A stretch of DNA of 64,000 nt from Escherichia coli. Lineage in GTDB: Bacteria > Pseudomonadota > Gammaproteobacteria > Enterobacterales > Enterobacteriaceae. This document shows, piece after piece, positions 1 to 26,165 of the stretch (positions are counted from its first letter, which is position 1; each line of letters begins with the position of its first letter). Location of the stretch: assembly GCF_016026235.1 (NCBI RefSeq), contig NZ_CP065613.1; one strand, given 5' to 3'. The translations under genes were made by a program, and so were the position numbers. The notes below the pieces were generated by a model that saw only the letters and a program-made list of their open reading frames with translations, did no database searches and was not told the origin of the DNA.

Positions 1-4624
<4,624 letters not shown>

Positions 4625-5421: not shown

Positions 5422-6402
5422 TTATTTCGCGTTGTAATTACGCAGCGCGTTACGACCAAGCACAATCCCCGCGCCAACCATGCCGCCCAGCAGCACAGCC
5501 AGAATCAAGGTAATTGCTTTCTTCGGGCTATCACGACGAATAGGTAACGTCGGTTTCATCACATAGCGGTAAGCATGAATATCAAGATCACCAACTTTTA
5601 AGCTTTCGATATCCAGCAGGTTTTGACGTGTCTGATAGTAGTTTGGTGAGAACACCAACGGACGGGTCGCCTCGTGCTTAATCATCGACTCCAGCGCTTC
5701 GCTCCCCAAAAGGAACAACGTATCTTGTGTGATATCTTCGCCAGTCTGTTGAATCTGCGGTTTTGTCACCTGCGCCTGATTCGCATACTGCAACGCTTCC
5801 TGAATCTGACGGATACGCAGATCTTTCTGCTCCTGCGCAACCACTTCCTGAGTTCTCAAAGAATCCTGCAAGTTTTTCATACGCAGCGCGATGTTGTCTT
5901 TCAGGTCTTTTTCCAGCTCTACATTTACCTGGTCGTCAACTTGCTGGATATACTTCGCCAGCTGTTTCTGCGCACCTTCAGGTGTTTTACCAACATAAGA
6001 CACCGCTAAAGGTAATGACTGATTTTTAACGGTAGGCTCAATGGTCAGCTTTTCTGCTTCTTCCTGGTTATCCAGCGTTTCCGCTAATGCTGAAAATGCA
6101 GTGCTGTAACGTCCGATAAGTGAAGCCTGAATGTCGGAGACTTTCGGTACTGCCGGACCGTAAATCACATTCATCGCGTTGGTATAACCAGCGATTTGCC
6201 CCACATCAGGTTGAGTAACGATAGCTGTTGAAGTCCACTTTTCTTTGGCAACGGCCAGATACCCTATAGCCAAGGCAATAGCCACAATGACAGAAATGAT
6301 GATAGTCATCTTGCCACGCCATAGTTGGACCAGTAAATCAATCAAATCAATCTGTTCCGGGTCATGGTTTTGCCCAGAAACATTATTATTTTCTACTCTC
6401 AT
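5422..6402 (-). CDS. wzzB: O-antigen chain-length determinant (polysaccharide co-polymerase)
   Basis: ORF 5422-6459; start placed at internal MRVENNNVSGQNH as recalled for WzzB; two TM segments flanking a coiled-coil periplasmic region. Confidence 0.9.
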   Translation of the reverse strand: MRVENNNVSGQNHDPEQIDLIDLLVQLWRGKMTIIISVIVAIALAIGYLAVAKEKWTSTAIVTQPDVGQIAGYTNAMNVIYGPAVPKVSDIQASLIGRYSTAFSALAETLDNQEEAEKLTIEPTVKNQSLPLAVSYVGKTPEGAQKQLAKYIQQVDDQVNVELEKDLKDNIALRMKNLQDSLRTQEVVAQEQKDLRIRQIQEALQYANQAQVTKPQIQQTGEDITQDTLFLLGSEALESMIKHEATRPLVFSPNYYQTRQNLLDIESLKVGDLDIHAYRYVMKPTLPIRRDSPKKAITLILAVLLGGMVGAGIVLGRNALRNYNAK

Positions 6403-6548
6403 CATTACCCTAACGGACGAAATAATTTTAAGTCGCCATAGTTTAGCGATAATCGCCATAAATGCTATAGGATAAATGATAAAAACAATGAATTATCACA
6501 AAGAAAACAAAAGACAATCAGGGCAAAAATCGCCCTGATTACAAGATG

Positions 6549-6656
<108 letters not shown>

Positions 6657-6827
6657 CTAATAGTCAATTTAGAACAGCTTTGATTGTAAAACGAGCACGT
6701 TACCAGAAAAAACAGCTAAGTTTAGAACTGATACCGATTATCTTTTTTTCTTGTCTAACGGTATGATTTAACTTTCAGTTATGCCAGATGAAGATTGGCT
6801 ATATTCTAGCCTGAGCGAGGATTATAA

Positions 6828-7832
6828 ATGAAATTTCTGGTTACGGGAGCTGCTGGCTTTATCGGTTTCTATATAAGTAAACGGCTTCTTGCAGCTGGTC
6901 ATCAGGTTGTAGGCATTGACAACTTAAATGATTATTACGATGTCAACCTCAAACAAACACGACTTGATTTACTCAAGCACGACAATTTCAGTTTTTATAA
7001 AATTGACCTGGCCGATCGCGAGAAAATGGCGGTACTGTTTGCAGACGAGCGGTTCGATCGCGTAATAAACCTCGCTGCGCAAGCCGGTGTACGTTACTCC
7101 CTTGAAAATCCCAATGCATATGCAGATGCAAACCTGATTGGATTCCTGAACGTACTGGAAGGATGTCGCCATAATAATGTTCAGCATCTACTCTACGCTT
7201 CCTCCAGTTCTGTTTATGGCATGAACCGCAAGATGCCTTTCTCTACAGATGACTCTGTAGATCATCCTGTTTCGCTTTATGCAGCAACTAAAAAAGCGAA
7301 TGAACTCATGGCCCATACCTATTCTCATTTGTATGGCTTACCGACCACAGGGCTGCGTTTCTTTACGGTTTATGGTCCATGGGGACGTCCGGATATGGCA
7401 CTATTTAAATTCACTAAAGCCATGCTGGAAGGTAAAAGCATTGATGTTTACAACTTCGGCAAAATGAAGCGTGATTTTACTTATATTGATGATATTGCCG
7501 AAACTATTATTCGCTTACAGGATGTTATTCCAGAAAAAGATCCACAGTGGGCTGTAGAAACAGGCTCGCCTGCAACAAGTTCAGCACCATATCGTGTCTA
7601 TAACATTGGTAATAGTTCGCCTGTAGAGTTGATGGACTATATCAATGCGTTAGAAGAGGCTCTGGGTATTGAAGCCAACAAAAATATGATGCCTCTCCAA
7701 CCCGGTGATGTACTGGAAACCAGTGCTGATACAAAAGCACTGTATGACGTAATAGGATTCAAACCCGAAACGTCAGTTAAAGAGGGGGTAAAGAACTTTG
7801 TAGAATGGTATCGTAACTTCTATAAAGTTTGA
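6828..7832 (+). CDS. gla: UDP-glucuronate 4-epimerase (NAD-dependent SDR)
   Basis: 334 aa; GAAGFIG Rossmann motif, YAATKKANE catalytic YxxxK; close resemblance to Gla/LpsL-type UDP-GlcA 4-epimerases as recalled. Confidence 0.85.
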   Translation: MKFLVTGAAGFIGFYISKRLLAAGHQVVGIDNLNDYYDVNLKQTRLDLLKHDNFSFYKIDLADREKMAVLFADERFDRVINLAAQAGVRYSLENPNAYADANLIGFLNVLEGCRHNNVQHLLYASSSSVYGMNRKMPFSTDDSVDHPVSLYAATKKANELMAHTYSHLYGLPTTGLRFFTVYGPWGRPDMALFKFTKAMLEGKSIDVYNFGKMKRDFTYIDDIAETIIRLQDVIPEKDPQWAVETGSPATSSAPYRVYNIGNSSPVELMDYINALEEALGIEANKNMMPLQPGDVLETSADTKALYDVIGFKPETSVKEGVKNFVEWYRNFYKV

Positions 7833-7848
7833 TTTTACAAAACCATAA

Positions 7849-7880
7849 GAAAAGGCCCTAATTTATTAGGGCCTTTTCTT
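7849..7880. terminator. Bidirectional terminator between convergent gla and ugd
   Basis: Perfect hairpin aaaaggccctaa / ttagggcctttt with A-run on one side and T-run on the other. Confidence 0.75.
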
Positions 7881-7897
7881 AGAATGAAACAAAATAA

Positions 7898-9064
7898 TTA
7901 ATCATTGCCAAACAAGTCGCGAGTATAAACTTTATCTGCTACATCAGCCAGATCGGCAGACATACGGTTAGAAATAATAACATCAGCTTCTTGTTTGAAT
8001 GCATCCAAATCACGTACCACGCGCGACCGGAAAAAATCGTCCTCTTTCATCGCTGGCTCATAAACGATTACAGGAACGCCTTTCGCCTTGATTCGCTTCA
8101 TAATACCCTGAATCGAGGAAGCACGAAAATTGTCTGAACCACTCTTCATAATCAAACGATAGACGCCAACAACTTTCGGTTTACGTGCAAGGATAGAATC
8201 GGCAATAAAGTCTTTTCGCGTGCGGTTGGCATCAACAATTGCCGAAATCAGATTATTCGGCACAGATTGATAGTTTGCCAGTAACTGCTTGGTATCTTTC
8301 GGCAGACAATAACCTCCATAACCAAATGACGGATTGTTGTAGTGATTACCGATACGCGGATCAAAGCAAACCCCCTCAATAATCTGGCGGGAATTAAGCC
8401 CCAGACTTTCAGCATAACTATCTAGTTCATTGAAATAAGCTACACGCATCGCCAGATAGGTGTTGGCAAAAAGTTTAATCGCCTCAGCTTCCGTTGAGTC
8501 AGTAAACAACGTTGGAATATCTTGCTTAATAGCACCTTCTTGTAATAATGCTGCAAAACGTTCAGCGCGTTCAGACTGCTCACCAATCACAATGCGTGAT
8601 GGATGCAAGTTATCATAAAGTGCTTTCCCTTCGCGTAAAAACTCCGGCGAAAAGATCACATTTTCAATACCAAATCGTTCTTTAATGGACTCTGTAAAAC
8701 CAACAGGGATAGTTGATTTTATAATCATTACAGCGTTGGGATTAATTTCTGTCACATCACGGATGACCGCTTCCACGCTTGAGGTATTAAAATAATTTGT
8801 TTTTGGGTCATAATCGGTAGGCGTGGCAATAATAACGTAATCGGCATTTTTATACGCGTCATACTTATCTGTCGTAGCGCGGAAATTGAGCTCTTTAGTC
8901 GCCAGATACTCTTCAATCTCCTTATCAACAATCGGTGACAGCTTCTTGTTAAGCATGTCCACTTTGGCCTGAACGATATCCAATGCCACCACTTCGTGAT
9001 TTTGCGCAATCAGAATACCATTTGAAAGACCAACATAACCTGTACCTGAAATTGTTATTTTCAT
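7898..9064 (-). CDS. ugd: UDP-glucose 6-dehydrogenase
   Basis: ORF 7898-9091; start placed at [16 protein letters not shown] (NAD-binding GxGxxG); 388 aa from that start. Confidence 0.93.
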
Positions 9065-9279: not shown

Positions 9280-10571
9280 TGAGGGATCCCCAGAAAATTT
9301 AGTAAACCATTATCATATTGGTATACCGTTGCTGTAGAACTTTCAGCCCTGCGTCAAGTGACAGTGTGTTTAGTATGAGTGGAGAATGTCGAATCACATT
9401 CTCCGCCAGTTTTAATAACGAGATGACTCGCCTGTGCTTCACTGTATTTGCCTGATATTTATGATGTATCCCTTTGTTTTCCAGGCTGAAACCGCTTAAC
9501 CACATAATGATACTGGCTAATGTTGCGATCAGACTCAATACCGTGACCCGCCCGGATGAATGACTGGCACCAAACCGTAGTCCAAATCCCCAGCGAGGAT
9601 TTTTTTCATCCCTGAAATTTTGCTCAATTTGCATTCTACGGCTGTATAATTTCATTACCTGTTTTGGCGAGAACTCAGTACTGTTTGTGAAAATAAACCA
9701 TGGTGATTTCCCGGCAGTACGAGCTTTAGCCGTCACCGATGGTCTGGTTGCTCTTTCCTTCGAGCGTTTAAATCTACGACCTTTAGGCTTACTTTTATAA
9801 AGATAAAAATGCCCTTCATGTTGTGCATTTTTATCTCGACCCAGCAGGCCTTCACCTAAATAAATTGCTGTCGTTGATGCTTTTGTGCCTGAGTCCGACA
9901 CCTTTTCCCAGCCATTACCAACATTGTAATAATGATTGCCCAGTACCCGGCAAATATAGGTCCAGCCACGGGAGCGGAGCTGTTGGAACCATCGCCCCTG
10001 AAAACCGGCATCTGTAATAACAATGACATCAGTCCCGGGGGAAAAGCACTCAGCAAGCGATTCCAGAAAACGCTCATGTACATCTGCATTCGCTGTCTGT
10101 GATGATGGAACGACACAACTCATCAACGGTAAAGAACGCCCGTCACATGCCAGGCTTGCCCGCAAAAGCTGAAAACGAGAGGCATGATAAGCACTCCAGT
10201 CAATGAGTATCACAACACGAGACATTCCCCGCGTAATCTTTTGGGTAATTCGCTGAAAAATGGTGGAAACCTCATTTTGCAAATGTCGATTCCCCAACAG
10301 TCGATCCACCCGCTTTATTTTGTTTTTAACTGATGCCGTACCGGTTAAATGACGCCCGATACTGGTAAGTGTGAGGGAAGCGCCATTTATTACAGCATTA
10401 GTTGCGTCAATCAGTGATTTTTGACGGTAAAGATGCAAAGGGGCCAGTATATTGTTAAGGAAATTTTGGCATAATGAACGTGCAGGCATAGTGGTGATCT
10501 CCTTGAAATTGTTAGCACAATCAATTAGATCACATCTCACTATGCCTGTCTTGTTTTCTGGGGATTCCTCA
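9280..10571 (-). mobile_element. IS4-family (IS10-like) insertion sequence, about 1.29 kb, apparently intact
   Basis: Terminal inverted repeats TGAGGGATCCCCAGAAAA (9280-9297) and TGAGGAATCCCCAGAAAA (reverse complement of 10554-10571), 17/18 match; single transposase ORF; flanked by 12-bp direct repeats. Confidence 0.85.
9299..10489 (-). CDS. DDE transposase, IS4 family (IS10-like)
   Basis: ORF 9299-10594 extends beyond the IS end, so start placed at internal MPARSL (10489) preceded by AAGGAG; motifs KIKRVDRLLGNRHL, ITDAGF, YSRRMQIEQNFRDEK, HKYQANTVKHRRV parallel the IS10 transposase as recalled. Confidence 0.85.
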   Translation of the reverse strand: MPARSLCQNFLNNILAPLHLYRQKSLIDATNAVINGASLTLTSIGRHLTGTASVKNKIKRVDRLLGNRHLQNEVSTIFQRITQKITRGMSRVVILIDWSAYHASRFQLLRASLACDGRSLPLMSCVVPSSQTANADVHERFLESLAECFSPGTDVIVITDAGFQGRWFQQLRSRGWTYICRVLGNHYYNVGNGWEKVSDSGTKASTTAIYLGEGLLGRDKNAQHEGHFYLYKSKPKGRRFKRSKERATRPSVTAKARTAGKSPWFIFTNSTEFSPKQVMKLYSRRMQIEQNFRDEKNPRWGFGLRFGASHSSGRVTVLSLIATLASIIMWLSGFSLENKGIHHKYQANTVKHRRVISLLKLAENVIRHSPLILNTLSLDAGLKVLQQRYTNMIMVY

Positions 10572-10616: not shown

Positions 10617-12023
10617 TTAATCCAGCCATTCGGTATGGAACACACCTTCTTTATCAATGCGCTTATAAGTATGTGCACCGAAATAGTCACGCTGTGCCTG
10701 GATCAGGTTCGCAGGAAGAACAGCGGCGCGGTAGCTGTCATAATAGGCAACCGCAGCGGCGAAGGTCGGAACCGGGATACCGTTCTGTACCGCATAAGCG
10801 ACGACATCGCGCAGCGCCTGCTGGTAGTCATCGGCAATTTGCTTGAAATACGGAGCCAGCAGCAGGTTAGCGATCTGCGGATTTTCGGCATAAGCATCGG
10901 TGATTTTCTGCAGGAACTGCGCACGGATAATGCAGCCAGCACGGAAAATCTTCGCGATTTCGCCATAGTTCAGATCCCAGTTGTACTCTTCAGACGCAGC
11001 ACGCAACTGAGAGAAGCCCTGGGCGTAAGAAACGATTTTGCCCAGATACAGAGCACGACGAACTTTTTCGATGAACTCAGCCTTGTCGCCTGCTGGCTGC
11101 GCTTGCGGACCAGACAGTACTTTGGACGCGGCAACACGCTGCTCTTTCAGAGAAGAGATGTATCGTGCAAACACAGACTCGGTAATGAGCGACAGCGGTT
11201 CACCGAGATCTAGCGCGCTTTGGCTGGTCCATTTACCGGTACCTTTGTTAGCCGCTTCATCCAGAATCACATCAACCAGGTAGTTACCGTCTTCATCTTT
11301 TTTAGTGAAGATGTCTTTGGTGATGTCGATCAGGTAGCTGCTTAGTTCACCATTATTCCACTCGGTAAAGGTCTGCGCCAGTTCATCGTTGGTGAGGTTC
11401 AGGCCACCTTTAAGCAGAGAATAGGCTTCAGCAATCAGCTGCATATCTCCGTATTCAATACCGTTGTGAACCATCTTCACATAGTGACCTGCGCCATCGG
11501 CACCAATATAGGTAACACATGGCTCCCCATCTTCAGCCACTGCGGCGATTTTGGTCAGGATCGGTGCGACCAGTTCATAGGCTTCTTTCTGGCCACCAGG
11601 CATGATGGAAGGTCCTTTCAGCGCACCTTCTTCGCCACCAGAAACACCGCTACCGATAAAGTTAAAGCCTTCTGCAGACAGCTCACGGTTACGACGAATG
11701 GTGTCCAGGAAGAAAGTGTTACCACCATCAATGATGATGTCACCTTTATCGAGGTATGGCTTGAGAGAATCAATAGCAGCATCCGTGCCTGCACCTGCTT
11801 TCACCATTAACAGGATGCGACGAGGCGTTTCCAGAGATTCAACAAACTCTTTTATTGTATAGTAAGGAAATAACTTCTTATCCGAATGAGTAGCTATAAT
11901 TTTTTCTGTTTTTTCACGAGAACGGTTAAAAATTGAAACAGTATAGCCGTGACTTTCGATATTTAGTGCAAGATTACGCCCCATTACCGCCATACCGATA
12001 ACCCCAATCTGTTTTTTTGACAT
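10617..12023 (-). CDS. gnd: 6-phosphogluconate dehydrogenase (decarboxylating)
   Basis: ORF 10617-12029; start placed at [21 protein letters not shown]; ends ...GVFHTEWLD. Confidence 0.95.
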
Positions 12024-12874
12024 TTTCACTCCTATTTAATTAGCAGAATAATAAACGTATTGAAACACATATAAAAATATGTCATATGGAAAATATTGCA
12101 TTAAGACAAACAACAGATAATTGTATATGTAATTAAACTTATATTAAATTAATTACAGAAAATACTCAAAACTAACGTTGCTCTCCACACTCTAGTTTCC
12201 AGTGTCTCAGACTAACTATTATTAATAGTCTCCGCGATATATAAGAGATTTAACTGCCATGCCTCAAATATATCTTTCAACTCACTTACATTTTATAAAT
12301 TACAATAATCGAGAGTCAAATTATCAACCTCAAAATAATTTTGACAAACAACGAGGCTGTTGGTGTTTCCAGAATACTCAAATTGGTTCTATTCGTCATA
12401 TGTACTAAAACCTTAAAGCCAATGAAATATATCTTATCACAGTCATCTAATAACCATATGATAGCCACCAATGAATTTAGAAAAAATAAAACTTAAGACT
12501 GTTCCTGACTCTGAAATTTTATACAGCACAAATAATGCAATGAACTATTCTATACTTTTAAGTAAAATAAAGACAATCTTTATCATAATACTAAGTTCAT
12601 TCGCACCAATTAACCTCAGAATTCATTTCAATGATAACTAAAGGCTTTATAAAAATAATTCTTCAGGAGAGGCACTTGGTAAACATAATTTTACTAAATA
12701 GATTGCAGATTATAATCTGATACAAAAACATTAATCACACTTCTTGTCCACACAGACCCACATTTCCCTATTCTATTGAAATTCACTTAAAACTCATCCA
12801 TGACATCATCAAATATAAAAATACATTTGCAAATCAAAAGCATTATCCAATATTTCTTTATAAGATTTGCCGAA

Positions 12875-13678
12875 TTATCTCCAAGAGGCAAAGTGGCGCT
12901 TAAAAAACAAACACAGCGGATTTATATGATGTTTGGCAACAGCATTAACAGCATAGTGGGAGAAATAATAAAGAGATTTAAACAGACCAAACTTTAAATA
13001 TTTCCTGTAAAAGGCCCATTGTGAAAATATTATTTTTAATTTATTTGACGAGAGTGTATCGGTGCCTACTCGATAATAGGCCAGTGTTTCGTTCAAACAA
13101 TATGCATAATCAATTTTATCTAAAATGCTCAGCCATAGTGCCATGTCCTGTCTTTTCCTGATTGTTGGCATAAACATTTTACCAAGAGATGAAGTATCAT
13201 ATACAGCTGTCAAGCAACCTATTACATTAGTCTTTAATAATTCAGAATAATTAACTTTAGAAACAGGATTAATTTGGGATAAAAGTTTCCCGCTAAAACT
13301 AACCTTTTGATATGAGGTATAAGTGAAAGCATAATTATTTGAAAGCATAAAGTCTATCTGTTTTTTTATTTTCTCTTTATGCCAAAAATCATCACTATCT
13401 AAAAAAGCGATAAACCGACCTTTAGCTTTACTGATCGCTATATTTCTTGACATACCAGCCCCATAATTCTTCTCATTTGAAATGAGAACAACTCTTGAAT
13501 CTTTTTTTTGATATTCCCTGCAAATAGACACTGTATTATCTGACGAACAATCATCGACAATAATCATTTCTATATTATTATATGATTGAGATAGAACAGA
13601 ATCAATTGTACATCTAATCGTTCTTTCAGAATTATATGTGGGTGTTATGACTGAAACTAAATATTTATCGGTACTCAT
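12875..13678 (-). CDS. Glycosyltransferase, family 2 (last gene of O-antigen cluster)
   Basis: 267 aa; ITPTYNSERTI ... VDDCSSD ... FLDSDD motifs typical of GT-A fold GT2 enzymes; AT-rich. Confidence 0.8.
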   Translation of the reverse strand: MSTDKYLVSVITPTYNSERTIRCTIDSVLSQSYNNIEMIIVDDCSSDNTVSICREYQKKDSRVVLISNEKNYGAGMSRNIAISKAKGRFIAFLDSDDFWHKEKIKKQIDFMLSNNYAFTYTSYQKVSFSGKLLSQINPVSKVNYSELLKTNVIGCLTAVYDTSSLGKMFMPTIRKRQDMALWLSILDKIDYAYCLNETLAYYRVGTDTLSSNKLKIIFSQWAFYRKYLKFGLFKSLYYFSHYAVNAVAKHHINPLCLFFKRHFASWR

Positions 13679-13837
13679 AGAATCATCTCAAACTTACATA
13701 AGTTTCATTATATAATGTCATGTTTATCATATCCATCCTTGGTAGCTTATTAAGAAATTTCACATATTAAATATTTATCAAGTATTTCATTAACATCCCA
13801 CCTTAATATAAAAAGCCGTTAATTAAGAGAGTAACTA

Positions 13838-13937
13838 CAAAGCAAAGCAAAGCAAAGCAAAGCAAAGCAAAGCAAAGCAAAGCAAAGCAAAGCAAAGCAA
13901 AGCAAAGCAAAGCAAAGCAAAGCAAAGCAAAGCAAAG
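13838..13937. repeat. Pentanucleotide microsatellite (GCAAA)x20 on + strand, (TTTGC)x20 in the operon direction
   Basis: Perfect tandem array visible at 13838-13937, between gne (ends 13989) and the GT2 gene (starts 13678). Confidence 0.95.
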
Positions 13938-13988
13938 ATGGTTTTATAAAAATATTGACAGTGAATAAAATAGCACATTAAAATCGTC

Positions 13989-15002
13989 TTATTTATATCC
14001 TTTGGGATTGTTTTTTTGCCAACGCCAAGAATCAATTATCATTGTATCTAAATCATATCGAGAAGACCACCCTAATTCTAAAAATGCTAGAGATGGATCA
14101 GACCAACATTCAGCTATATCACCAACTCGACGAGGTTTGAAACAATAAGGGATATCAATTCCAGTACAACGTTTAAAGGTATTTATCACATCAAGAACTG
14201 AATAACCAACCCCTGTACCAAGATTATATACTTTATAATTTCCCCCAAAATTACGGTGTTCTAAAGCAGCTATGTGCCCTTCAGCCAAATCCATAACATG
14301 AATATAATCTCTAATGCCTGTTCCATCAGGTGTAGGATAATCATTTCCGAATACTGATAAATATTTTAGATTACCAATAGCCACTTGAGTAATATAAGGA
14401 ATTAAATTATTTGGAACACCATTAGGATCTTCGCCTAATAGACCAGAAGAGTGGGCTCCTACAGGATTGAAATAACGCAAAATAGTAATACGCATTGTTG
14501 GCTCAGCCAAAGCTATATCCTTCAAAACCCTCTCTACTATAAGTTTTGAAAAGCCATATGGATTAGTTGTTCCGCCAACGCTACTATCTTCCTTCAAAGG
14601 AATAGTTTCAGGCTTACCATACACTGTTGCGGAGGAGCTAAAAATAAAACTAATAACGCCAGCGCGCATCATTTCTTCAAGTAAAACAATAGTTCCGTTA
14701 ACATTGTGATCATAATATTCCAATGGATTTGAAACAGATTCAGCGACGGCTTTTAATCCTGCAAAATGAATAACATCTGTAATATCATGATACTGGAAAA
14801 TATGTTTGAGTTTTTTCCTATCACGCACATCACCATGATAAAATAGAGGCCTACGTCCACAAATTTTTTCGACCCTTTCTAACGACTTAGACGATGAGTT
14901 CGATAGATTATCCAACACCACCACATTTTTTCCGTATGATAATAAGGATAATACAGTATGTGAACCAATGTAACCTGCACCACCAGTAACCAAAATAGTC
15001 AT
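13989..15002 (-). CDS. gne: UDP-hexose 4-epimerase, GalE family (probably UDP-GlcNAc 4-epimerase Gne)
   Basis: 337 aa; LVTGGAGYIGSH ... HFAGLKAVAESV ... YxxxK context; GalE-family SDR inside an O-antigen cluster. Substrate (UDP-Glc versus UDP-GlcNAc) cannot be decided from sequence by eye. Confidence 0.8.
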   Translation of the reverse strand: MTILVTGGAGYIGSHTVLSLLSYGKNVVVLDNLSNSSSKSLERVEKICGRRPLFYHGDVRDRKKLKHIFQYHDITDVIHFAGLKAVAESVSNPLEYYDHNVNGTIVLLEEMMRAGVISFIFSSSATVYGKPETIPLKEDSSVGGTTNPYGFSKLIVERVLKDIALAEPTMRITILRYFNPVGAHSSGLLGEDPNGVPNNLIPYITQVAIGNLKYLSVFGNDYPTPDGTGIRDYIHVMDLAEGHIAALEHRNFGGNYKVYNLGTGVGYSVLDVINTFKRCTGIDIPYCFKPRRVGDIAECWSDPSLAFLELGWSSRYDLDTMIIDSWRWQKNNPKGYK

Positions 15003-15348
15003 AAAACTCCTTATATTTCATCTATCTGCCTAGGATATAAAACAAGAATATAAACACATTATAAATAGTATAAACTGTGAAAGAATAAAAATTTAGAATA
15101 GTTAAGCCCAATGTTACTATAAAAATACAATATGCAAGTATACGTTATTTTTCTAAACATCTCGACATATTGTATGAGTCTAACACTATATTGCATTTTT
15201 TTCGTGTAAATTATGTTCTAGTGGTGTCAGTAATTCGAGCAATTTATGAGGCCTTTTATTCTTGTACAGTATGCAATATTGAGCCTGTTTATGATTGACA
15301 TATTCAGATTTTCAAAGAGCAATTCTTCATTAAACTCAATAAACGGCT

Positions 15349-15634
15349 ATCTCAGTGATCGGTTAAAGCGCTCACAGATGGTGTTCATTTTCGGCGTATC
15401 GAGATAAGCCTATTGGTGCCTGATAGCGGCTTCCTGTAGCTTTTTGTCAAATTTTCCCAGGAACTCTTCCCCATAATCGGGTATATTCTGGTTGATTCCA
15501 ACAGGTAACAACCGAGCTTGATGGCAGAAGAAACTCATGATTACATCACTGTTAAGCGACGTTACCGCCACCGCCAAAGCGTAGTTGCTGCGTTCGTCAA
15601 TCACGGTAATAACATAACGCCGATTCTGAGCTCA
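15349..15634 (-). pseudogene. Remnant of an rve-type (integrase-core DDE) transposase gene, frameshifted and truncated
   Basis: Minus-strand frames give ...RRYVITVIDERSNYALAVAV... (VIDxxSR-like first catalytic-D region) and, in another frame, ...PKMNTICERFNRSLR* (xERFNRxL C-terminal integrase-core motif); local G+C looks higher than the surrounding cluster. Confidence 0.45.
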
Positions 15635-15944
15635 ATATAAGCTCACCGGTCTTTAGCGGGCTAATAGTACCTTGGACTTGAAGTCTGGGAACCCAGTTAC
15701 ACCAGTATTAGCCACATTTTATCATGTGCTGCCTAGCTCATTCCTCCAATAGTGGAGACGCTCGGGCAGGCCAAATGCTACTGTTCACACTACAGATTCA
15801 GACGGTCAAAAATCTGTTCTTTTCCAAGGTTGAGAAGTCCTATTCTAATTCATCATATTTCTTTCAAAATTTCTGGATGTCATAGTTTTGTAAGACATAC
15901 TAGAAAGATTTACTACTTGAGATAAGCACTTCCGAGCCTATATA

Positions 15945-16307
15945 TTAAACGCGTATTGATACACAAAAATTTTCTGCGGATGCATTGATTCCATGTCTTT
16001 CCCTAAAATGCAGGGTTTTCATTCTTAATTTTGCAATATCAGGCATGGCATTGTATTCCATCGCATAGATTGTTGCACGGTAATGCCCGAAACACCTGAC
16101 GCCGATATGTTGGTTCAACATAACAATCTCTCCTTTCTTATCTGGAGACAATTGCAACATCTCTGAAAACTTACACTCTGCCCATCGTGTACATAACCAA
16201 AGACAACAGAAATATGTCACGCCTTTTTCCAAATTCCAATTTATATTCCTTACTCTTATAACACAAGGAGTATCTGAATATATAAGAGTGAAGGAGTGCT
16301 TTGGCAA
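15945..16307 (-). CDS. Hypothetical protein or gene fragment of unknown function
   Basis: 120-aa ORF in the decayed segment between gne and wzy; no recognisable motifs; may be a remnant. Confidence 0.25.
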   Translation of the reverse strand: MPKHSFTLIYSDTPCVIRVRNINWNLEKGVTYFCCLWLCTRWAECKFSEMLQLSPDKKGEIVMLNQHIGVRCFGHYRATIYAMEYNAMPDIAKLRMKTLHFRERHGINASAENFCVSIRV

Positions 16308-16752
16308 AAATATTTAATTCAAAGATATAAAACACAATCGATTTAGTATCAAAAGATTACTCAGTAATCTTTCACCAAATAAATTAGTTCAAAATAACAC
16401 TACAGCAATGGCAATAAAACCATTCCATGAAATAGCAACATAAACACGCAAATAGAATTTCCACGTAAATTTATAACACTTACCAATCCAAAACATTATT
16501 TATTATAGATTGTATTCATGGGATTATCACCTGGTTCAGTTATAGATTTGTGATCTATGTAGTTCACTATTCTTACAGTTCTCAAAAAACTTAAATTAAA
16601 TTGTTGCGCTATTACCCTATAGTCTTTAAATACCCATAAAAACAAAGGCAAAAACCAATTTGTTTTACAGATATCTAGAATAAGATAATATGTCAACAAT
16701 TAACAAGTTACTACTATTGTTTGTTAATAAAAACCTGCAATTAAAATAATAA

Positions 16753-18015
16753 TCATGCATTAACCGAACCCCTTCTTATTAATCTTTTTTTATGACAAAT
16801 ATAAAAAGATGAAAATATATATATATATATTATTTTCATATATGCAACATTCAAAAATATAACCTCGCCTTTATAATGAAAAGAAAAACTGAGTATCGTA
16901 ATCATTAATACAACTATTTTAGGTTTGATGCTATTAGCAGCATAAATAGTCAAAAAAATAAAAAATAAAAAATAAAAAATAACCGATGGTACCGCACCCA
17001 AAAATAATGCTAACCGCATAAATCCAGCATCGGTCCCGAGATAATATGTCCCATCCTTTAACGTATAGTACCCATCACCAATGAAGATCTGTTTTTCTGT
17101 TAACGGAAAATACATATTAAATAATGCATCTGTAGATGTTGTTGATAACTTTCCTGAATCTAAATAATAATATAACATTTGAAAAGAATAATCCGAATAT
17201 TTTTTCAAGATATCATAAACATGTTCATTTAAAAAAAATCTCCAAAAAATAAATAAAAACAGAGATACATAAATCAAAATTTGAAGCGCCCGATAAAACT
17301 TCTTTTTATAATCAGAGCAAATAAAACTATATACCCCTCCGAGGACAAACCCCAAAACAGCCGTACGCCCAGCAGAAATTGACGCGAACAGCAAGAGTAT
17401 GATAAAAAATAATTTAAAAAAGAAAGGAATATTACAGTCTTCCTCATTAAACCAAACAATTGAAAGAAAAGATAATAATGACATAATTATAGCAAGACCA
17501 AAGGCAACAGAACCTGATATACCTAATCCCCTGATGCCTCCATATGTATTACTCATAAATTCTATTTCTTCTTTTGTTCTAATAATACTTTGAATATAAG
17601 CATTTATACTGGGAAAAAACATCATCAGAATAATAAAAAAGGATTGTAAGAGGGCAATTAGAAAAAACAATTTCAACACATTATCATTGTTATGCTGGAT
17701 TAAGTGCGACGCAATTATAACAGAGCTGAATAATGCAGCGAAATTATTAAAGATAACCCCCATGATAGATAAATCTCCTGTACCATTTAATACCAATGAA
17801 ATACAAGAAAAAAAGAGCATGCAGGCCAAAGACAAAAACGCAATAAAAAATATTCTTGTACTTATTAGACTAAAAAAAACAGTCCTTATCCTGATATTTG
17901 TAATTAAATAAATCAAGGAGAAAATATATATAAGATAGCCTGAATTAAAAAAAACAGGGATGCTAAAAGCAAACACAAATAAAAACAACAAAAATACATC
18001 AAAAAAAACCTTCAT
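16753..18015 (-). CDS. wzy: O-antigen polymerase
   Basis: 420 aa, highly hydrophobic multi-TM protein with a larger hydrophilic loop, adjacent to glycosyltransferases and wzx; identity as Wzy is by elimination (the other polytopic protein has the Wzx pattern). Confidence 0.7.
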   Translation of the reverse strand: MKVFFDVFLLFLFVFAFSIPVFFNSGYLIYIFSLIYLITNIRIRTVFFSLISTRIFFIAFLSLACMLFFSCISLVLNGTGDLSIMGVIFNNFAALFSSVIIASHLIQHNNDNVLKLFFLIALLQSFFIILMMFFPSINAYIQSIIRTKEEIEFMSNTYGGIRGLGISGSVAFGLAIIMSLLSFLSIVWFNEEDCNIPFFFKLFFIILLLFASISAGRTAVLGFVLGGVYSFICSDYKKKFYRALQILIYVSLFLFIFWRFFLNEHVYDILKKYSDYSFQMLYYYLDSGKLSTTSTDALFNMYFPLTEKQIFIGDGYYTLKDGTYYLGTDAGFMRLALFLGAVPSVIFYFLFFIFLTIYAANSIKPKIVVLMITILSFSFHYKGEVIFLNVAYMKIIYIYIFSSFYICHKKRLIRRGSVNA

Positions 18016-19127
18016 AAAAATTCCTTTTGTGACACGACCCGATAATAAATATCAACCATACGCTTTGTGTTTTTATTTATATCAAACATTTTTATTATTG
18101 TATCTCGGTTATATTCAATCGAACACCTATATTGATTACTATCTATTAATTTCACACACCTTGAAAAAACAGATTTCATGTCAATATCATCATGCAGATT
18201 CAAATACATTGCATGATTTCCTAATAGCTCTCTGTTTGCATCGATGTCTGATACTATCGGAAAACAATTACATAAAACGCCCTCCATTAAAGATAATGGA
18301 GCACCATCATTGCTAGGAATACTAAGAACAAAATCAGATTTATGAAGAATCGACCTTAATTCCTCTTTTTGAATAAACCCTATTAAATTTACTTTATAAT
18401 TATCTCCCTCACATTTTTTTGTGAGTTCTATTATCTTATCATGTGTGGTCTTTGACGATGAGCGGCCTAGTATATTGATATTAAAAAAGTACCCTTTACA
18501 ATCATAATCTTTCATATCAATAACAGCTTCTAAAAAGGACTCTATGTTATAAATATTATCCCAATTTCTTACAGAAGTTATTGTTATACATTTATCGTCC
18601 CTTATGCTTGACGTTTTTTCATCTGAAAAGAACCCCACATCTACACCATATTGAAAAGTATGTATTCGCTCCTGATTCACATTGAAATACGATATTATTT
18701 TATTTGTTATATGCTTGGCGGGTGAATTTACAACACAAAAACTTTTCATTGCTTTTACATATATTTTTCCTAATATCCCTCTCTTTTTTATAGTATTGTT
18801 AATGTCACTTCCCCATACTGAGAGTATCTTCTTTACTTTTCTAGGCAAAACACATGAAATTAAACCATAAGAACTAAAAAAATGGACATGAACCAACTCA
18901 GGCTTTAATAAAAAAAAATAAAAAAGAAGAAAAACAGGTGCGTATATAAAATCAAATTTAGTTTTTGTAAGTCTTGGTATCTTATATATCTCTCCTATTC
19001 CAACATTCTCAGAAATACTTTTGTCATAGTGTAGTGTGACAATTCTATAATCAATATATTCTTTGGAACCATGAATCCAGTTACTAATATGACCAGATAT
19101 CATAGGGCCAAAAACAAGTACTCTCAT
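18012..19127 (-). CDS. Glycosyltransferase, GT-B fold (GT4 / family 1 type)
   Basis: 371 aa; C-terminal E-x7-E-like region ...LSLMEGVLCNCFPIVSD...; overlaps neighbours by 4 bp. Confidence 0.75.
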   Translation of the reverse strand: MRVLVFGPMISGHISNWIHGSKEYIDYRIVTLHYDKSISENVGIGEIYKIPRLTKTKFDFIYAPVFLLFYFFLLKPELVHVHFFSSYGLISCVLPRKVKKILSVWGSDINNTIKKRGILGKIYVKAMKSFCVVNSPAKHITNKIISYFNVNQERIHTFQYGVDVGFFSDEKTSSIRDDKCITITSVRNWDNIYNIESFLEAVIDMKDYDCKGYFFNINILGRSSSKTTHDKIIELTKKCEGDNYKVNLIGFIQKEELRSILHKSDFVLSIPSNDGAPLSLMEGVLCNCFPIVSDIDANRELLGNHAMYLNLHDDIDMKSVFSRCVKLIDSNQYRCSIEYNRDTIIKMFDINKNTKRMVDIYYRVVSQKEFL

Positions 19128-20017
19128 TTTTTCCCCATTCGTTTTCTTAAATTTAAATAATAATTTTTAGCATGGAGTGGAGACAACCACCCAATACATT
19201 TCCCCACAATATTGTGCTTGATTTTTATTGATTCAATGACAGAGAATAAAAAAAACTCAACTGAAAAGTTGGTTGCATTAAATAAATGAATAGGTGCAAC
19301 TTCATTTTTTCTGAAAAATTTAGATAAAATAGTCTTGTTTTTTATTTGGATAAACTTCTTACAACTGCCAATTGAGCCATGCCTTATCCTATAAAATAAA
19401 ACCACGTCATCTATATTCCTTACAATACATCCACTCAATACAGCCCTACACAAAAAATCATAATCTTGAGCAGCATCTAAACGCCTGTAACCACCTAATT
19501 TATAATAAAGCTCTGACCTTAACAACCAAGTTGGATGAATTATTTCATTCCCCCACGAAAAATCTACTGGGTTCATATTAAAATAATCCCTAACAACATT
19601 ATCGTTCTCATCAATAACAACAGCCTGTCCACCGACTAAACTGACATCAGAATGCTTATTCAGATATTCTAATTGCTTTTTAAAACGCCCGTTAATAACA
19701 ATATCATCAGCATCCATTCTGGCAATAAAATCATAGCCATTACACGCGCCAAAAATTAATTTATTTAAACTTGCCGCCAACCCTTCGTTCTCATTAAAAA
19801 AAACAACGCACACATCATTTCTGGCACTAACTTCTTTTAAATATAAACTCTCAACATGAGGAATATCTTCATTTCTCCTATCGACTCCAATTATTAATTT
19901 ATATTTCACATTCTTCTTTTCCAATCTTTCCAGATCCTGAAGAGTACTGTCTACTGCCTTTTTTAGTATTATGTAACTCTCATTATAGTAAGTCATGATT
20001 ACAGCAAGTTTTTGCAT
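19124..20017 (-). CDS. Glycosyltransferase, family 2
   Basis: ORF 19124-20143; start placed at internal MQKLAVIMTYYNE (typical GT2 N-terminus); DAD/DxD-like motif RMDADD. Confidence 0.75.
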   Translation of the reverse strand: MQKLAVIMTYYNESYIILKKAVDSTLQDLERLEKKNVKYKLIIGVDRRNEDIPHVESLYLKEVSARNDVCVVFFNENEGLAASLNKLIFGACNGYDFIARMDADDIVINGRFKKQLEYLNKHSDVSLVGGQAVVIDENDNVVRDYFNMNPVDFSWGNEIIHPTWLLRSELYYKLGGYRRLDAAQDYDFLCRAVLSGCIVRNIDDVVLFYRIRHGSIGSCKKFIQIKNKTILSKFFRKNEVAPIHLFNATNFSVEFFLFSVIESIKIKHNIVGKCIGWLSPLHAKNYYLNLRKRMGKK

Positions 20018-21204
20018 TTCAAATCCCACAGACAACAAATTGTAATAATAATTGGCGATAGAACTACAGCATATACTATATAATAATATGGGAATAATGA
20101 AGAAAATAAAAAAATAGATATTAACGATAATACATTCGAACAAATCACATATTTTACTATATTTTTTGATGAGTGTATCATATGAATTAATTGAGTTAAA
20201 TATTGATTGAGTATACTTGGGATAACAGCTAGGCTAAATGAAAATATTAGAAAAATAAAAAAACGAGATATTTCTCCCTTTGTCAAATAAATAGAGATAT
20301 ATGATATTGCAGCCACACATATAAAAACAACGATGCTGTAAAACAACAATTTGAGTAGCTGACTTCTGTATTTTACTTCCACATAGTTAGTTTTGTGCCC
20401 TACGGAATAAAAAACCTCTGAATTACATTTATTTAAGACAGTGATAATTGAATTGGAAAATGTTACGGATACTGTCACAAATCGCATAACGACGTTATAT
20501 ATCCCTAACAAGCTAGCATTTCCTGATGCCAATATAGCAGAATTAATTATAGGCTGAATAAGTGCATTTACCCCGCTATATATGTACATATGCTTAATGT
20601 TTTTCAAATAATTTTTAATGTGTCTAAATGATATTTTTCCCAACCTATTATCATTCTTTATTTTTATCAAACTAATAAGTCCAACCAGAGCAGATGCTAT
20701 CGCCTGAATAAAAATAAACATGTGTAATTCAAAAGCATAATATAAAACAAATAAAACCGCTAAAATTTTAACTACCAAGGACACTATTATTATAAACCTA
20801 AAGTTATCCTTTGCTATATAGTACCAACTATTAAGCATGCCAAATCCAAACGAGAATATTACGACACAAAAATAATCACTCTTCCCTGCAGTCTCTGAAA
20901 TTATAATAAACACCATCGCACATACAAAAAAAAACACTAACTTAAAGAAAATCGCTGAAATAACAAACGACTGCTGAGCAATTTCATTACCCTTAAGCTT
21001 ATTTAATTGTTGTACGCCTACTGTATTTAGACAAGCATCATAAATAAATGAAATAAAAGTTGATATAGTTAACACATACGAATAAACTCCATATCCCTCT
21101 AAATTAAATCTAGTTAAAACCAGCGGCATAATTATTATTGGGACAATATAATCCACTAGCTTTAGAGCACTTACAGAGATAATACTTCTTAAAAAACTAG
21201 ACAT
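19999..21204 (-). CDS. wzx: O-antigen flippase
   Basis: 401 aa, about 12 predicted TM segments, polysaccharide-transporter-family N-terminus. Confidence 0.75.
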   Translation of the reverse strand: MSSFLRSIISVSALKLVDYIVPIIIMPLVLTRFNLEGYGVYSYVLTISTFISFIYDACLNTVGVQQLNKLKGNEIAQQSFVISAIFFKLVFFFVCAMVFIIISETAGKSDYFCVVIFSFGFGMLNSWYYIAKDNFRFIIIVSLVVKILAVLFVLYYAFELHMFIFIQAIASALVGLISLIKIKNDNRLGKISFRHIKNYLKNIKHMYIYSGVNALIQPIINSAILASGNASLLGIYNVVMRFVTVSVTFSNSIITVLNKCNSEVFYSVGHKTNYVEVKYRSQLLKLLFYSIVVFICVAAISYISIYLTKGEISRFFIFLIFSFSLAVIPSILNQYLTQLIHMIHSSKNIVKYVICSNVLSLISIFLFSSLFPYYYIVYAVVLSPIIITICCLWDLKCKNLL

Positions 21205-21643
21205 CTTTTATTTTTCTAGCCGGTTGCCCAACATATACACCTGGTTCCTCTAAGTTTTTTGTAACTATCGCTCCGGCACCAACAATAATATTACTACAGA
21301 TCTCCACTCCCGGTAAAACAATTGCTCCAGCACCTAACTGAACATTATCTTTTATTACTACCTTATCTTTTTTATATTTAAAGATTTTCTTTTCAAATAC
21401 CAAACCTGTACTGAGAATTTTACTACCAGCAGACAGTACTACATTATGGCCTAAAATGACTCCTCCACTAGCATTTATATACACAAAATCATTAATTGAA
21501 AAGGAATTACCGAATTTAAGATTCGATGGTTCTACTATCTTATAAGGACCATAAATATGGGATTGCTTATAACGTTTTACTCCAAACTCACAGATAAAAC
21601 ATAATTTATACCATATTAATTGAATTCTAGAGAATATGCTCAT
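21197..21643 (-). CDS. Hexapeptide-repeat O-acetyltransferase
   Basis: 148 aa; left-handed beta-helix hexapeptide repeats (GHNVVLSAGSKI... GAGAIVLPGVEI... GAGAIVTKNL). Confidence 0.8.
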   Translation of the reverse strand: MSIFSRIQLIWYKLCFICEFGVKRYKQSHIYGPYKIVEPSNLKFGNSFSINDFVYINASGGVILGHNVVLSAGSKILSTGLVFEKKIFKYKKDKVVIKDNVQLGAGAIVLPGVEICSNIIVGAGAIVTKNLEEPGVYVGQPARKIKDV

Positions 21644-22557
21644 AGCTTTAACTCCTTTCCGAGCCTTTCATCCCATTCAAATGGAGTTATCTTATCATAC
21701 CCCGATCCTTGATGAAATGTTAATTCGCCTACATATATTTTTTCTTGAACAAGATATAAATCAACCCTAAGATATTTGAAACCTTGACTTAGTTTTTTAG
21801 ATATATTTAGAGCGTTTTCTAACTGACTTGGTTTACTAATATTCTTCACATTAAATTTTGAAAGATCTTTTCCCCTTCTCGCCCAGCAAAAATCTAACAT
21901 ATTCCAACTAGTATCATATATAGAACGATAATTCCCTCCCTCACGATCTAACGACACATAAATAAATTTCGGTTCTCCATTAAAACAATGAATTTTTATA
22001 TCATTAGGAACTTTCCCTGCCTCATCCTCTAATAACCTTTCAACAATTATACGCCTATCAATATTTTTATATTGCCATTCTCTTCCGTGATGGTAAATAT
22101 TACAATTAAGTGTTCTAATAAATTTCCACTTAACCTCATCAATATTCAATAAATTCTTGTCTCTAACAATAAAATAATCGCCACAATAGTGGTTCGATTT
22201 TATAACAAACTTACCCTGTGGTAAAGACTCAAAGGTAATATCAAAAGGGGTATCATAAACCTTTAACAAATCAATTATATTATCTCTCGTTCCCAGCCTA
22301 TTTTCCACATATTCTCGCACTCTAATTTTATCAGCACATATTGTATGTAATAGTGTTCTGTCATTTAGTTTCAACCATTGTAACTTTTGATTTAATGTCT
22401 TCGGATTGTTCAATCCGAGAGGGTATCCCTGATATTCAAGAAACTGCTTTTTTATAATCAAGCTATCTGGAGTAATCAGAACGACAAAGCATTTCAATAA
22501 ATACTTTATATTATACAATATATACATCAATTTCATGGAAAGATTTTTTCTATTCAT
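21640..22557 (-). CDS. TupA-like ATP-grasp protein (predicted amide ligase acting on a sugar carboxylate)
   Basis: 305 aa; NPKTLNQKLQWLKL motif and overall layout recalled as characteristic of the TupA-like ATP-grasp family. Confidence 0.65.
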   Translation of the reverse strand: MNRKNLSMKLMYILYNIKYLLKCFVVLITPDSLIIKKQFLEYQGYPLGLNNPKTLNQKLQWLKLNDRTLLHTICADKIRVREYVENRLGTRDNIIDLLKVYDTPFDITFESLPQGKFVIKSNHYCGDYFIVRDKNLLNIDEVKWKFIRTLNCNIYHHGREWQYKNIDRRIIVERLLEDEAGKVPNDIKIHCFNGEPKFIYVSLDREGGNYRSIYDTSWNMLDFCWARRGKDLSKFNVKNISKPSQLENALNISKKLSQGFKYLRVDLYLVQEKIYVGELTFHQGSGYDKITPFEWDERLGKELKL

Positions 22558-23237
22558 ATTAGAATCTCAAATAATTTATGCTGTCTTACCCATTCTCTTG
22601 CCTGACCTTTCGATACTACTACCCCAACGTTGCTCATTTTTAATATTGGTAAATCGCTAATAGAATCAGAGTAAGTTGTTATATGATACTCAGAAACATC
22701 TAACGACAAAACACCTTTTAACATTAATACTTTATTATATCCCATGCAATTCTTGCCACTAATTCTCCCTAAACACCTGCCTCTATTATCAAATTTAATT
22801 TTTGTGCATACAAAGCCATTAATCTCTAATGCTTTAACTAAATATTGAATATAAATATCATAGCCTCCAGAAATAATAATAACCTCATCTCCATCTTTTA
22901 AATGCTTATTCAATATCTTAATTATGGCAGGATTAATTCTGCGCAATATAATTTCATTAACGTAATCACGAGCCATTACATTAAGAATATCCCTTTCAAT
23001 ATTTTTTAACATATACAATAAAATTCTTTTCCTTAAGCTTTCCCCCAATCTTATTTTATTTATTATTTGTTCGATTTTGAAAATGGATAATGAAGATGCC
23101 ACCCTATTTAAAGTCTGTATTTTGATGTTATTACATATCCCCAAACGATCTATTACATAGTATATAAACCCATCGCCAGTTTGAAAATCAACTAAGGTTT
23201 CACACAGATCAAATAATGCTATCTTTTTTAACTTCAT
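22554..23237 (-). CDS. HAD-superfamily phosphatase (subfamily IB-like)
   Basis: 227 aa; N-terminal motif I variant FDLCETL, ISGG, C-terminal YSDSISDLP acidic motif. Confidence 0.7.
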   Translation of the reverse strand: MKLKKIALFDLCETLVDFQTGDGFIYYVIDRLGICNNIKIQTLNRVASSLSIFKIEQIINKIRLGESLRKRILLYMLKNIERDILNVMARDYVNEIILRRINPAIIKILNKHLKDGDEVIIISGGYDIYIQYLVKALEINGFVCTKIKFDNRGRCLGRISGKNCMGYNKVLMLKGVLSLDVSEYHITTYSDSISDLPILKMSNVGVVVSKGQAREWVRQHKLFEILI

Positions 23238-24315
23238 ACATCTGCTCTAAAATTCTGATTACATACAACATTTGTTTTTTCGTTCCAATAGTAATTCTGA
23301 CACATAACTCGACCTCTTTCATATGAGATAAATCACGAACAAATATTAAATTAGATTTTAAACGTTCAATGAATGCTTTTTTATCATTCATCGATTTAAA
23401 CTCAATAACCAAAAAGTTCCCCTCTCCATATACAATATTTTTTTGACCTATATTTATATTTTTCAACTTATCATAAAAAAAACGCTTAGCCTGATTAACT
23501 TCCTTAACATAATTATTCATATATTCAACTTCGTCTAATGCATTCAAAGCGGCAATCTGACTTAGCTGAGGTATATTTTTTGCATTTCTGACTTTATTTA
23601 TTGCACCTAACAAATCTTGTGACGCTATTATATATCCCATTCGCATCCCTGCCAATGAAAATGCTTTGGAAAATGTTCGCGTAATAATTATGTTATTAAA
23701 GGAGTTTACAAAATCAGCACACGTTAATTTTGCAAATTCATAATAGGCTTCATCGATAATAAAATATATTCCTTTATATTTTTCTACAAGATAATGTATA
23801 TCTCCTTTAGGAATAAGAGTACCTGTAGGATTATTTGGGTTACATAAATAGGCCATTTGAGGTTGAAACTTATTGAGATCGCTTTCAAACTTCTTTAATG
23901 ACCAATAGTAATTATCTTCAAAAATTGAATAACAAATTGTTGCCCCTTGAGCTTCACCTGTTGTTCTGAAATTATCATACGTAGGTGCTAACATCAATAT
24001 TTTATCATTTTCATTAATTAATGTACGAATGATAGACTCGTGTGCTGAGTCTGAACTACAAAAATATTGGATATATTCCTTTGGCACCCCCACATAGTTT
24101 GATATCTTTATTATTAAATCTTTATTGCTCACATCTGGATAATACCTAATTAGATTATTTACCAACGAATTCATTAATGCATTTTTTACTCTTTCTGGCG
24201 GTTCAATAGTAGATTCGTTCCAATCTAATTTTAATATTGTTTCTTTATTTTCACTCTCCCATATAGCGTGGGATGCAAGTTTATATGGTTTCATTTTTTT
24301 TACGAACTTATTCAA
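23209..24315 (-). CDS. HisC-family PLP-dependent enzyme (aminotransferase or decarboxylase acting on a phosphorylated substrate); first gene of the O-antigen operon
   Basis: 368 aa; motif-for-motif parallel with the hisC in this window (CNPNNPTG vs CSPNNPTG; IDEAYYEF vs ADEAYIEF; TRTFSKAFSLAGMRMGY vs [16 protein letters not shown]; VRITIGT vs LRITVGT) but highly diverged and AT-rich. Confidence 0.8.
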   Translation of the reverse strand: MNKFVKKMKPYKLASHAIWESENKETILKLDWNESTIEPPERVKNALMNSLVNNLIRYYPDVSNKDLIIKISNYVGVPKEYIQYFCSSDSAHESIIRTLINENDKILMLAPTYDNFRTTGEAQGATICYSIFEDNYYWSLKKFESDLNKFQPQMAYLCNPNNPTGTLIPKGDIHYLVEKYKGIYFIIDEAYYEFAKLTCADFVNSFNNIIITRTFSKAFSLAGMRMGYIIASQDLLGAINKVRNAKNIPQLSQIAALNALDEVEYMNNYVKEVNQAKRFFYDKLKNINIGQKNIVYGEGNFLVIEFKSMNDKKAFIERLKSNLIFVRDLSHMKEVELCVRITIGTKKQMLYVIRILEQMYEVKKDSII

Positions 24316-25991: not shown

Positions 25992-26165
25992 TATTTCATC
26001 CACCTGTAAAATGGTTGCTGAATTATAGCTTGTTCGATTTTTTTCGCCAGCATCAATTACCCTGAATTGATTACTGAATTACTTATGATGTTACGCCGCT
26101 TCGTTGTGGATTGCAGTAGCATTGTTCCTAAGTATGGCTCCATTTTTCCAGGAATGGTCGCAAAT

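Follow-up and report, generated by a model that had tools for sequence, protein, structure and literature searches.

The window, a stretch of 64,000 nucleotides of Escherichia coli DNA, begins in the last part of the his operon (+ strand) and continues through wzzB, the epimerase gene gla, ugd, an IS element, gnd, an AT-rich O-antigen cluster at about 12.9-24.3 kb and galF, with the colanic acid genes lying beyond, all of these but gla on the - strand (Table 1). The gla ORF, as given in the ORF listing of the window, begins with ATG and encodes 334 residues; it is the sole + strand gene in the stretch from wzzB to galF, converges on ugd, and lies between wzzB and ugd, with gnd, the O-antigen cluster and galF further on, all on the - strand. 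The original prediction had placed an SDR ORF of this length here, convergent with ugd and outside the galF-gnd interval, and both the ORF, flanked by wzzB and ugd on the - strand, and its out-of-cluster location are confirmed by the gene order in the window. The 425-bp gap between wzzB and gla, on which that prediction was silent, holds a remnant of a second ugd together with the terminator of that remnant.

Table 1. Features of the wzzB-galF region in window coordinates, with the evidence for each.
Feature	Coordinates	Strand	Evidence
wzzB, O-antigen chain-length regulator	5422..6402	-	NCBIfam NF012015, 597 bits vs cutoff 267
Orphan terminator hairpin of the displaced native ugd	6514..6542	-	13-bp stem then T-run; -17.9 kcal/mol, z = -5.25
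Remnant of the displaced native ugd, last 34 codons + stop, 107 bp	6549..6655	-	In-frame translation, 91.6% to K-12 ugd 3' end
Imported gla upstream region, presumed promoter	6656..6827	+	Homology to Citrobacter / O111 gla upstream from ~6731-6737
gla (uge), predicted UDP-glucuronate 4-epimerase, extended SDR	6828..7832	+	334-aa ORF and homology
Predicted bidirectional intrinsic terminator common to convergent gla and ugd	7846..7881	both	Perfect 16-bp stem, 4-nt loop
ugd, UDP-glucose 6-dehydrogenase, divergent allele travelling with gla	7898..9064	-	NCBIfam NF011631, 799 bits vs cutoff 757
ISEc60-like IS4-family element	9280-10571		18-bp imperfect terminal inverted repeats
gnd	10617-12029	-	
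O143-type O-antigen cluster, presumed UDP-GalA consumer	12875..24315	-	wzx/wzy identity, strain D10 annotation, NCBIfam matches
galF	25098-26003	-	

The spacer between gla and ugd measures 65 bp and contains a hairpin with an A-run on one flank and a T-run on the other. Its computed energy is -23.9 kcal/mol whichever strand is folded (z = -6.9 and -5.7), a stability matched by none of 200 shuffled sequences (0/200). The sequence combines a GC-rich perfect palindrome, an upstream A-tract, a downstream T-tract and convergent flanking genes, the features of a bidirectional terminator, and the perfect two-way hairpin anticipated at this place was thus recovered. Upstream of gla, the region 6656-6827 contains no convincing sigma-70 promoter, the best candidate being a weak 8/12 match, and a search for a counterpart of the K. 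pneumoniae uge Fur box returned only a weak 14/19 match to the consensus at 6730-6748. This Fur-box-like site sits about 80-100 bp upstream of gla, and the match is too weak to claim.

Among solved structures, the closest match of the gla product, far ahead of the rest, is PDB 5U4Q from K. pneumoniae (E 1e-189), a protein deposited under the name dTDP-glucose 4,6-dehydratase and which we take to be the characterised Gla(KP) itself. It is followed by the UDP-GlcA 4-epimerase of Bacillus cereus, BcUGAepi (6ZL6, E 1e-43), and then by UDP-GlcNAc 4-epimerases of the WbgU type (5e-40); the margin between the latter two is small, and the residues bearing on specificity were therefore examined. BLASTP gives 81% identity to a Klebsiella-type epimerase encoded by an E. 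coli genome with a wholly Klebsiella-like polysaccharide region, in which the corresponding gene occupies exactly the Klebsiella uge site, where it converges on ugd and precedes the rfb genes. The gla product has close homologues (85-88% identity) across the Enterobacteriaceae, mostly under the name "NAD-dependent epimerase", the only name that PGAP gives to the present gene, while the JGI name is UDP-glucuronate 4-epimerase. NCBIfam contains no Gla model, and the gla identity is therefore one for which no curated cutoff is passed.

Pairwise and multiple alignments pair the residues of BcUGAepi with those of the gla product as follows: (i) T126/S127/S128 with S126/S127/S128; (ii) Y149 with Y151 and K153 with K155; and (iii) T178 with T180 and R185 with R187. 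The gla product displays the N-terminal NAD-binding GxxGxxG motif (GAAGFIG, residues 7-13), the Ser-Tyr-Lys triad (S126, Y151 and K155) and, by alignment, the carboxylate-holding set S127, S128, T180 and R187, of which T180 and R187 fall within the motif FTVYGPWGRPDMA, common to all close homologues. At the site of this motif, the GalE/Gne-type epimerase encoded elsewhere in the window (13989-15002) reads FNPVGAH..., without equivalents of T180 and R187, and WbgU shows Asn and Asp at the two positions. In addition, Pro85 and Gln211 of BcUGAepi, both discussed for that enzyme, correspond to Ala86 and Met213. In BcUGAepi, the Ser/Thr network holds the carboxylate of UDP-GlcA and Arg185 alone holds that of UDP-GalA, and mutational work attributes to the carboxylate-holding residues the prevention of decarboxylation (PMC12338863).

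Compared with BcUGAepi (6ZL6/6ZLA), the gla product preserves the fold, the Ser/Thr-Tyr-Lys triad and the carboxylate-holding Ser/Thr cluster and Arg, but the two proteins are 34% identical and the enterobacterial protein carries a 16-residue insertion at about residues 236-252. The Gne/GalE enzymes of O-antigen clusters belong to the same SDR superfamily and share the C4 chemistry of Gla, but are devoid of the uronate-binding Thr and Arg. The nearest known system is Uge/Gla(KP) of K. pneumoniae, likewise 334 residues long (the 81% identity given above), convergent with ugd and located in the polysaccharide region at the end nearest to his. The predicted substrate specificity thus rests on a handful of residues together with orthology to Klebsiella Uge, and the ORF can be assigned with high confidence as gla/uge, a putative UDP-glucuronate 4-epimerase. 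The Gla-type reading of the original prediction is supported both by homology to 5U4Q and BcUGAepi and by the active-site residues.

The likely consumer of the product is the adjoining O-antigen cluster, which comprises gne (the GalE/Gne-type gene), wzy, wzx, three glycosyltransferases, an acetyltransferase, an ATP-grasp amidoligase, an HAD-IB phosphatase and a HisC-like aminotransferase. The wzx-wzy segment matches four E. coli genomes carrying PGAP O143-family labels at 99.6% identity, and collinearity with E. coli O143 strain D10 extends over 28 kb, bar one IS insertion; judged by these matches, the cluster is of the O143 (Shigella boydii 8) type. All four E. coli O143 genomes (4/4) contain this gla at an identity of at least 99%. 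The wzy gene is intact in the window (16753-18015, 420 aa) and annotated as frameshifted in D10. Between gne and wzy, some 1.7 kb (15002-16753) are devoid of any long ORF, and D10 carries at the counterpart of this gap (locus L003, 26080-27015) what its annotation calls an integrase-core (IS) remnant with a frameshift.

Landersjo et al. are said to have described in 1996 a tetrasaccharide shared by O143 and S. boydii type 8, which contains GlcA and an amidated GalA, the amide partner of the GalA carboxyl reportedly being 2-amino-1,3-propanediol. The genes for the aminotransferase, the phosphatase and the amidoligase form an adjacent trio (21640-24315), in which the HisC-like aminotransferase scores 262 bits, just below the HisC cutoff, and the HAD-IB phosphatase resembles histidinol phosphatases. 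This trio fits the O143 structure so described and, together with Ugd and Gla, makes up a coherent pathway in which (i) Ugd would convert UDP-Glc into UDP-GlcA; (ii) Gla, dependent on NAD+, would interconvert UDP-GlcA and UDP-GalA through oxidation at C4, rotation of the 4-keto intermediate and re-reduction; (iii) UDP-GalA would then feed the O unit of the O143 / S. boydii 8 type; and (iv) the products of the trio would most likely synthesise the amino alcohol and link it by an amide bond to the GalA carboxyl. The two convergent genes gla and ugd, with a predicted bidirectional terminator in common, would constitute a two-gene uronic-acid module. The expectation that the O antigen of this strain contains galacturonic acid is supported by the linkage of gla to an O143 cluster, whose repeat unit reportedly includes a GalA derivative.

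A gla homologue was found in 530 of 5426 complete E. coli genomes, the 533 matching records dividing into 278 with this allele at an identity of at least 95% and 255 with alleles at 60-80%. This allele, at this junction, is present in about 5% of complete E. coli genomes; K-12 displays the order wzzB-ugd-gnd and no gla. Inspection of 18 genomes carrying the allele at an identity of at least 95%, with 16 clusters tabulated, located it next to clusters of O113 (4/18), O54 (2/18), O143, O139, O147 and O153/O178 (1/18 each) and unnamed types (5/18), in one strain labelled O155 and in two strains named O139:H1, whose clusters were left out of the tabulation. GalA is a constituent of the O143, O113, O139, O147, O54 and O178 O antigens, and four gla-linked clusters, those of O143, O54, NCTC122 and VTB96775v, contain ATP-grasp amidoligase genes. 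The original prediction regarded gla as part of the serotype-specific information, a view that does not hold, since the same allele (at least 96.9% DNA identity), at the same junction, adjoins O113, O139, O147, O54, O153/O178 and several unnamed clusters; these serogroups have gla in common as an accessory precursor gene, which is neither specific to O143 nor used for typing. The gla-positive strain NWU_3, labelled O155, has two further genes between ugd and gnd, one for an extra flippase and the other small and hypothetical (locus L088, 3582-5345), another case of O-antigen-related genes outside galF-gnd.

The state of the gene in other serogroups bears on its use. E. coli O111:NM 08-4377, whose O antigen is not known to contain GalA, carries a 78% gla allele in the same slot that is intact except for a nonsense codon at position 85 (locus L002, 14001-15005), and in E. 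coli AJ5, of serogroup O9 with a mannan O antigen, the gene is likewise intact except for a stop at codon 58 (locus L094, 14178-15182). In NCTC122, gla is interrupted by an IS, and one O100-type genome holds an intact 75% allele. The single nonsense codons in the O111 and O9 genes suggest that selection was lost recently in strains with O antigens devoid of GalA; gla would decay where GalA is not needed, and the distribution speaks for a functional link of intact gla to O antigens that appear to require GalA. In strain LL004, in which NMR located GalA in the O unit, ugd and wzz flank a 334-aa epimerase gene on the complementary strand (PMC8657804), which agrees with gla of the window in position and orientation.

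Three other readings of the gene were weighed, two of which concern the reaction catalysed. A 4-epimerase of the gne/galE kind, acting on UDP-GlcNAc/UDP-GalNAc or UDP-Glc/UDP-Gal and supplying GalNAc or Gal, might be considered in view of the proximity of WbgU-type enzymes to BcUGAepi in the PDB search and of the weak side activity of Klebsiella Gla on neutral UDP-hexoses. Precedents in the literature are the assignment of the LL004 ugd-wzz epimerase as gne (PMC8657804) and the placement by Iguchi et al. of gne and wzz immediately outside galF-gnd/ugd (PMC4379981). However, a true enzyme of the GalE/Gne family is already specified within the O143 cluster and scores 443-460 bits, above both cutoffs, whereas the 334-aa protein reaches 142.5 bits against a cutoff of 262.3 for TIGR01179 and 89 against 394 for NF007956; moreover, it possesses the uronate-specific T180 and R187, both missing from Gne and replaced in WbgU, and its orthologue position is that of Klebsiella uge, so that a neutral-sugar epimerase is very unlikely. 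A dTDP-glucose 4,6-dehydratase or a UDP-GlcA decarboxylase, as implied by the names of 5U4Q and several GenBank entries, is scarcely credible: the RmlB model is the top NCBIfam match by E-value, but at 144.5 bits the score lies far under the cutoff of 365.1 (TIGR01181), and dehydratases contain a T-D-E active-site triad at the place of SSS in the gla product. A decarboxylase is further opposed by the retention here of the residues that prevent decarboxylation (PMC12338863).

The third reading accepts a UDP-GlcA 4-epimerase but assigns its product to another glycan, for example a capsule or, on the Klebsiella pattern, GalA of the LPS core, the linkage to the O antigen being merely positional. 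It draws on the requirement of uge for the core LPS of K. pneumoniae (PMC11282780) and on E. coli genomes whose group 1 capsule loci resemble those of Klebsiella, in which gla adjoins the K locus. Nevertheless, the gene is found in only about 5-10% of E. coli genomes, which makes a conserved core role impossible; nonsense codons have inactivated it in the O111 and O9 genomes that were inspected; and the allele adjoins a limited set of O clusters, several with ATP-grasp ligases of the uronate-amide type. In addition, the E. coli core types are not known to contain GalA, and a role outside the O antigen is accordingly held to be highly improbable. In Klebsiella, the uge product feeds the LPS core and the gene is essentially universal and Fur-regulated (PMC11282780), whereas gla here is accessory, tied to particular O antigens and preceded by the weak Fur-like site. 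Supply of UDP-GalA to the O unit by Gla is thus the preferred reading.

The history of the locus is recorded in the wzzB-gla gap. In about 3,880 genomes without gla, homology to the window extends from wzzB into ugd and ends exactly at 6655, the remnant junction is common to about 274 complete E. coli genomes, and PGAP annotates the ugd remnant as a small pseudogene in every inspected genome with this allele. The resident ugd, 99.9% identical to that of E. coli O143 strain D10, has 76% DNA identity to K-12 ugd, about as distant as the ugd of Citrobacter or Klebsiella; this divergence of the ugd linked to gla is of the order found between genera, and E. coli therefore contains at least two very different classes of ugd allele. 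Since the remnant is K-12-like and the resident gene divergent, it follows that a foreign gla-ugd block displaced the native ugd, of which it replaced all but the last 34 codons, with its left boundary at 6655. The join on the left-hand side is non-homologous, ugd coding sequence being fused to the upstream region of gla. The occurrence of one and the same junction in 274 genomes argues for a single ancestral event, and points to a single replacement followed by recombinational spread beside many O clusters that would require GalA. Among species representatives, no close DNA donor of the gla-ugd block was found, the best match, in Citrobacter, reaching about 78%.

Taken as a whole, the account in which gla/uge supplies UDP-GalA for the O143 O unit, arrived in a foreign gla-ugd block, spread by recombination and decays where it is not needed is, on the genomic evidence, very probably correct. 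A wider formulation is quite conceivable and is offered tentatively, namely that gla-ugd is a mobile cassette for uronic-acid supply, acquired by E. coli a single time through partly illegitimate recombination, since carried by recombination beside at least ten O clusters, and acting as a hidden O-antigen determinant whose intact or decayed state would predict the presence of GalA in an unknown O antigen.

A second rearrangement affects the other side of the resident ugd, where the ISEc60-like element separates it from gnd. The element is flanked by a 12-bp target duplication, GAGGATTTCTCC, and is missing from E. coli O143 strain D10; near-full-length matches to it are confined to 13 complete E. 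coli genomes. Its 431-aa ORF, as listed, runs past the IS end, and the true transposase start is therefore placed internally.

Beyond E. coli, a scan of species-representative genomes for gla yielded 80 loci. The order hisI+ wzzB- gla+ ugd- gnd- recurs unchanged in Citrobacter sp. FP75, C. werkmanii, Enterobacter cloacae and E. asburiae, and a Kluyvera locus preserves the order of the window but gives no wzzB match. Besides the window, ugd lies next to gla in the enterobacterial loci L004-L009, and in about 19 of the 26 loci examined after these (L010-L035), from more distant Enterobacterales and marine gammaproteobacteria, gla comes after an adjacent ugd-type gene on the same strand. GC-stem palindromes of differing sequence occupy the gla-ugd spacers of seven related loci, including those of O111, Citrobacter, Enterobacter and Kluyvera, most of them set between an A-tract and a T-tract; the retention of a palindrome despite the change in sequence argues that the shared two-way terminator may be a maintained feature. 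The Citrobacter, Enterobacter and Kluyvera loci therefore resemble the window in gene order, orientation and spacer hairpin, but their DNA identity to it is 74-78% and they are without the ugd remnant, the recombination scar being seen at the E. coli junction. The placement of gla is thus not an oddity of this strain, as might have been supposed, but a conserved enterobacterial slot.

That gla lies outside O-antigen clusters has already been stated, though vaguely (PMC7685785, PMC8657804), and the paper on LL004 declares that gla "always maps elsewhere", yet labels the epimerase between ugd and wzz (orf11) gne (PMC8657804). The literature search found no paper stating the position of gla in E. 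coli or Shigella. The 334-aa orf5 of an O93 paper, pursued as a lead, was rejected as an unrelated GT-B protein. The gene, its function and its out-of-cluster location are thus already known, and it is the exact site and the frequent misnaming that are under-recognised. The result is an annotation correction, in a field where ordinary biology is often poorly annotated, and its added value is modest, consisting of the ugd scar, the conserved synteny, the natural pseudogenes and the mislabelling in the literature.

The current understanding of the pathway is unchanged. If the cassette reading is true, O-typing and several published cluster analyses overlook gla or mislabel it as gne. The ugd remnant neatly illustrates the remodelling that gene transfer brings about at the flanks of the O-antigen locus. 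Naming gla correctly would complete the genetic account of the GalA-containing O antigens of E. coli and Shigella, and an intact gla beside ugd would serve as a simple sequence marker for predicting GalA in uncharacterised O antigens.
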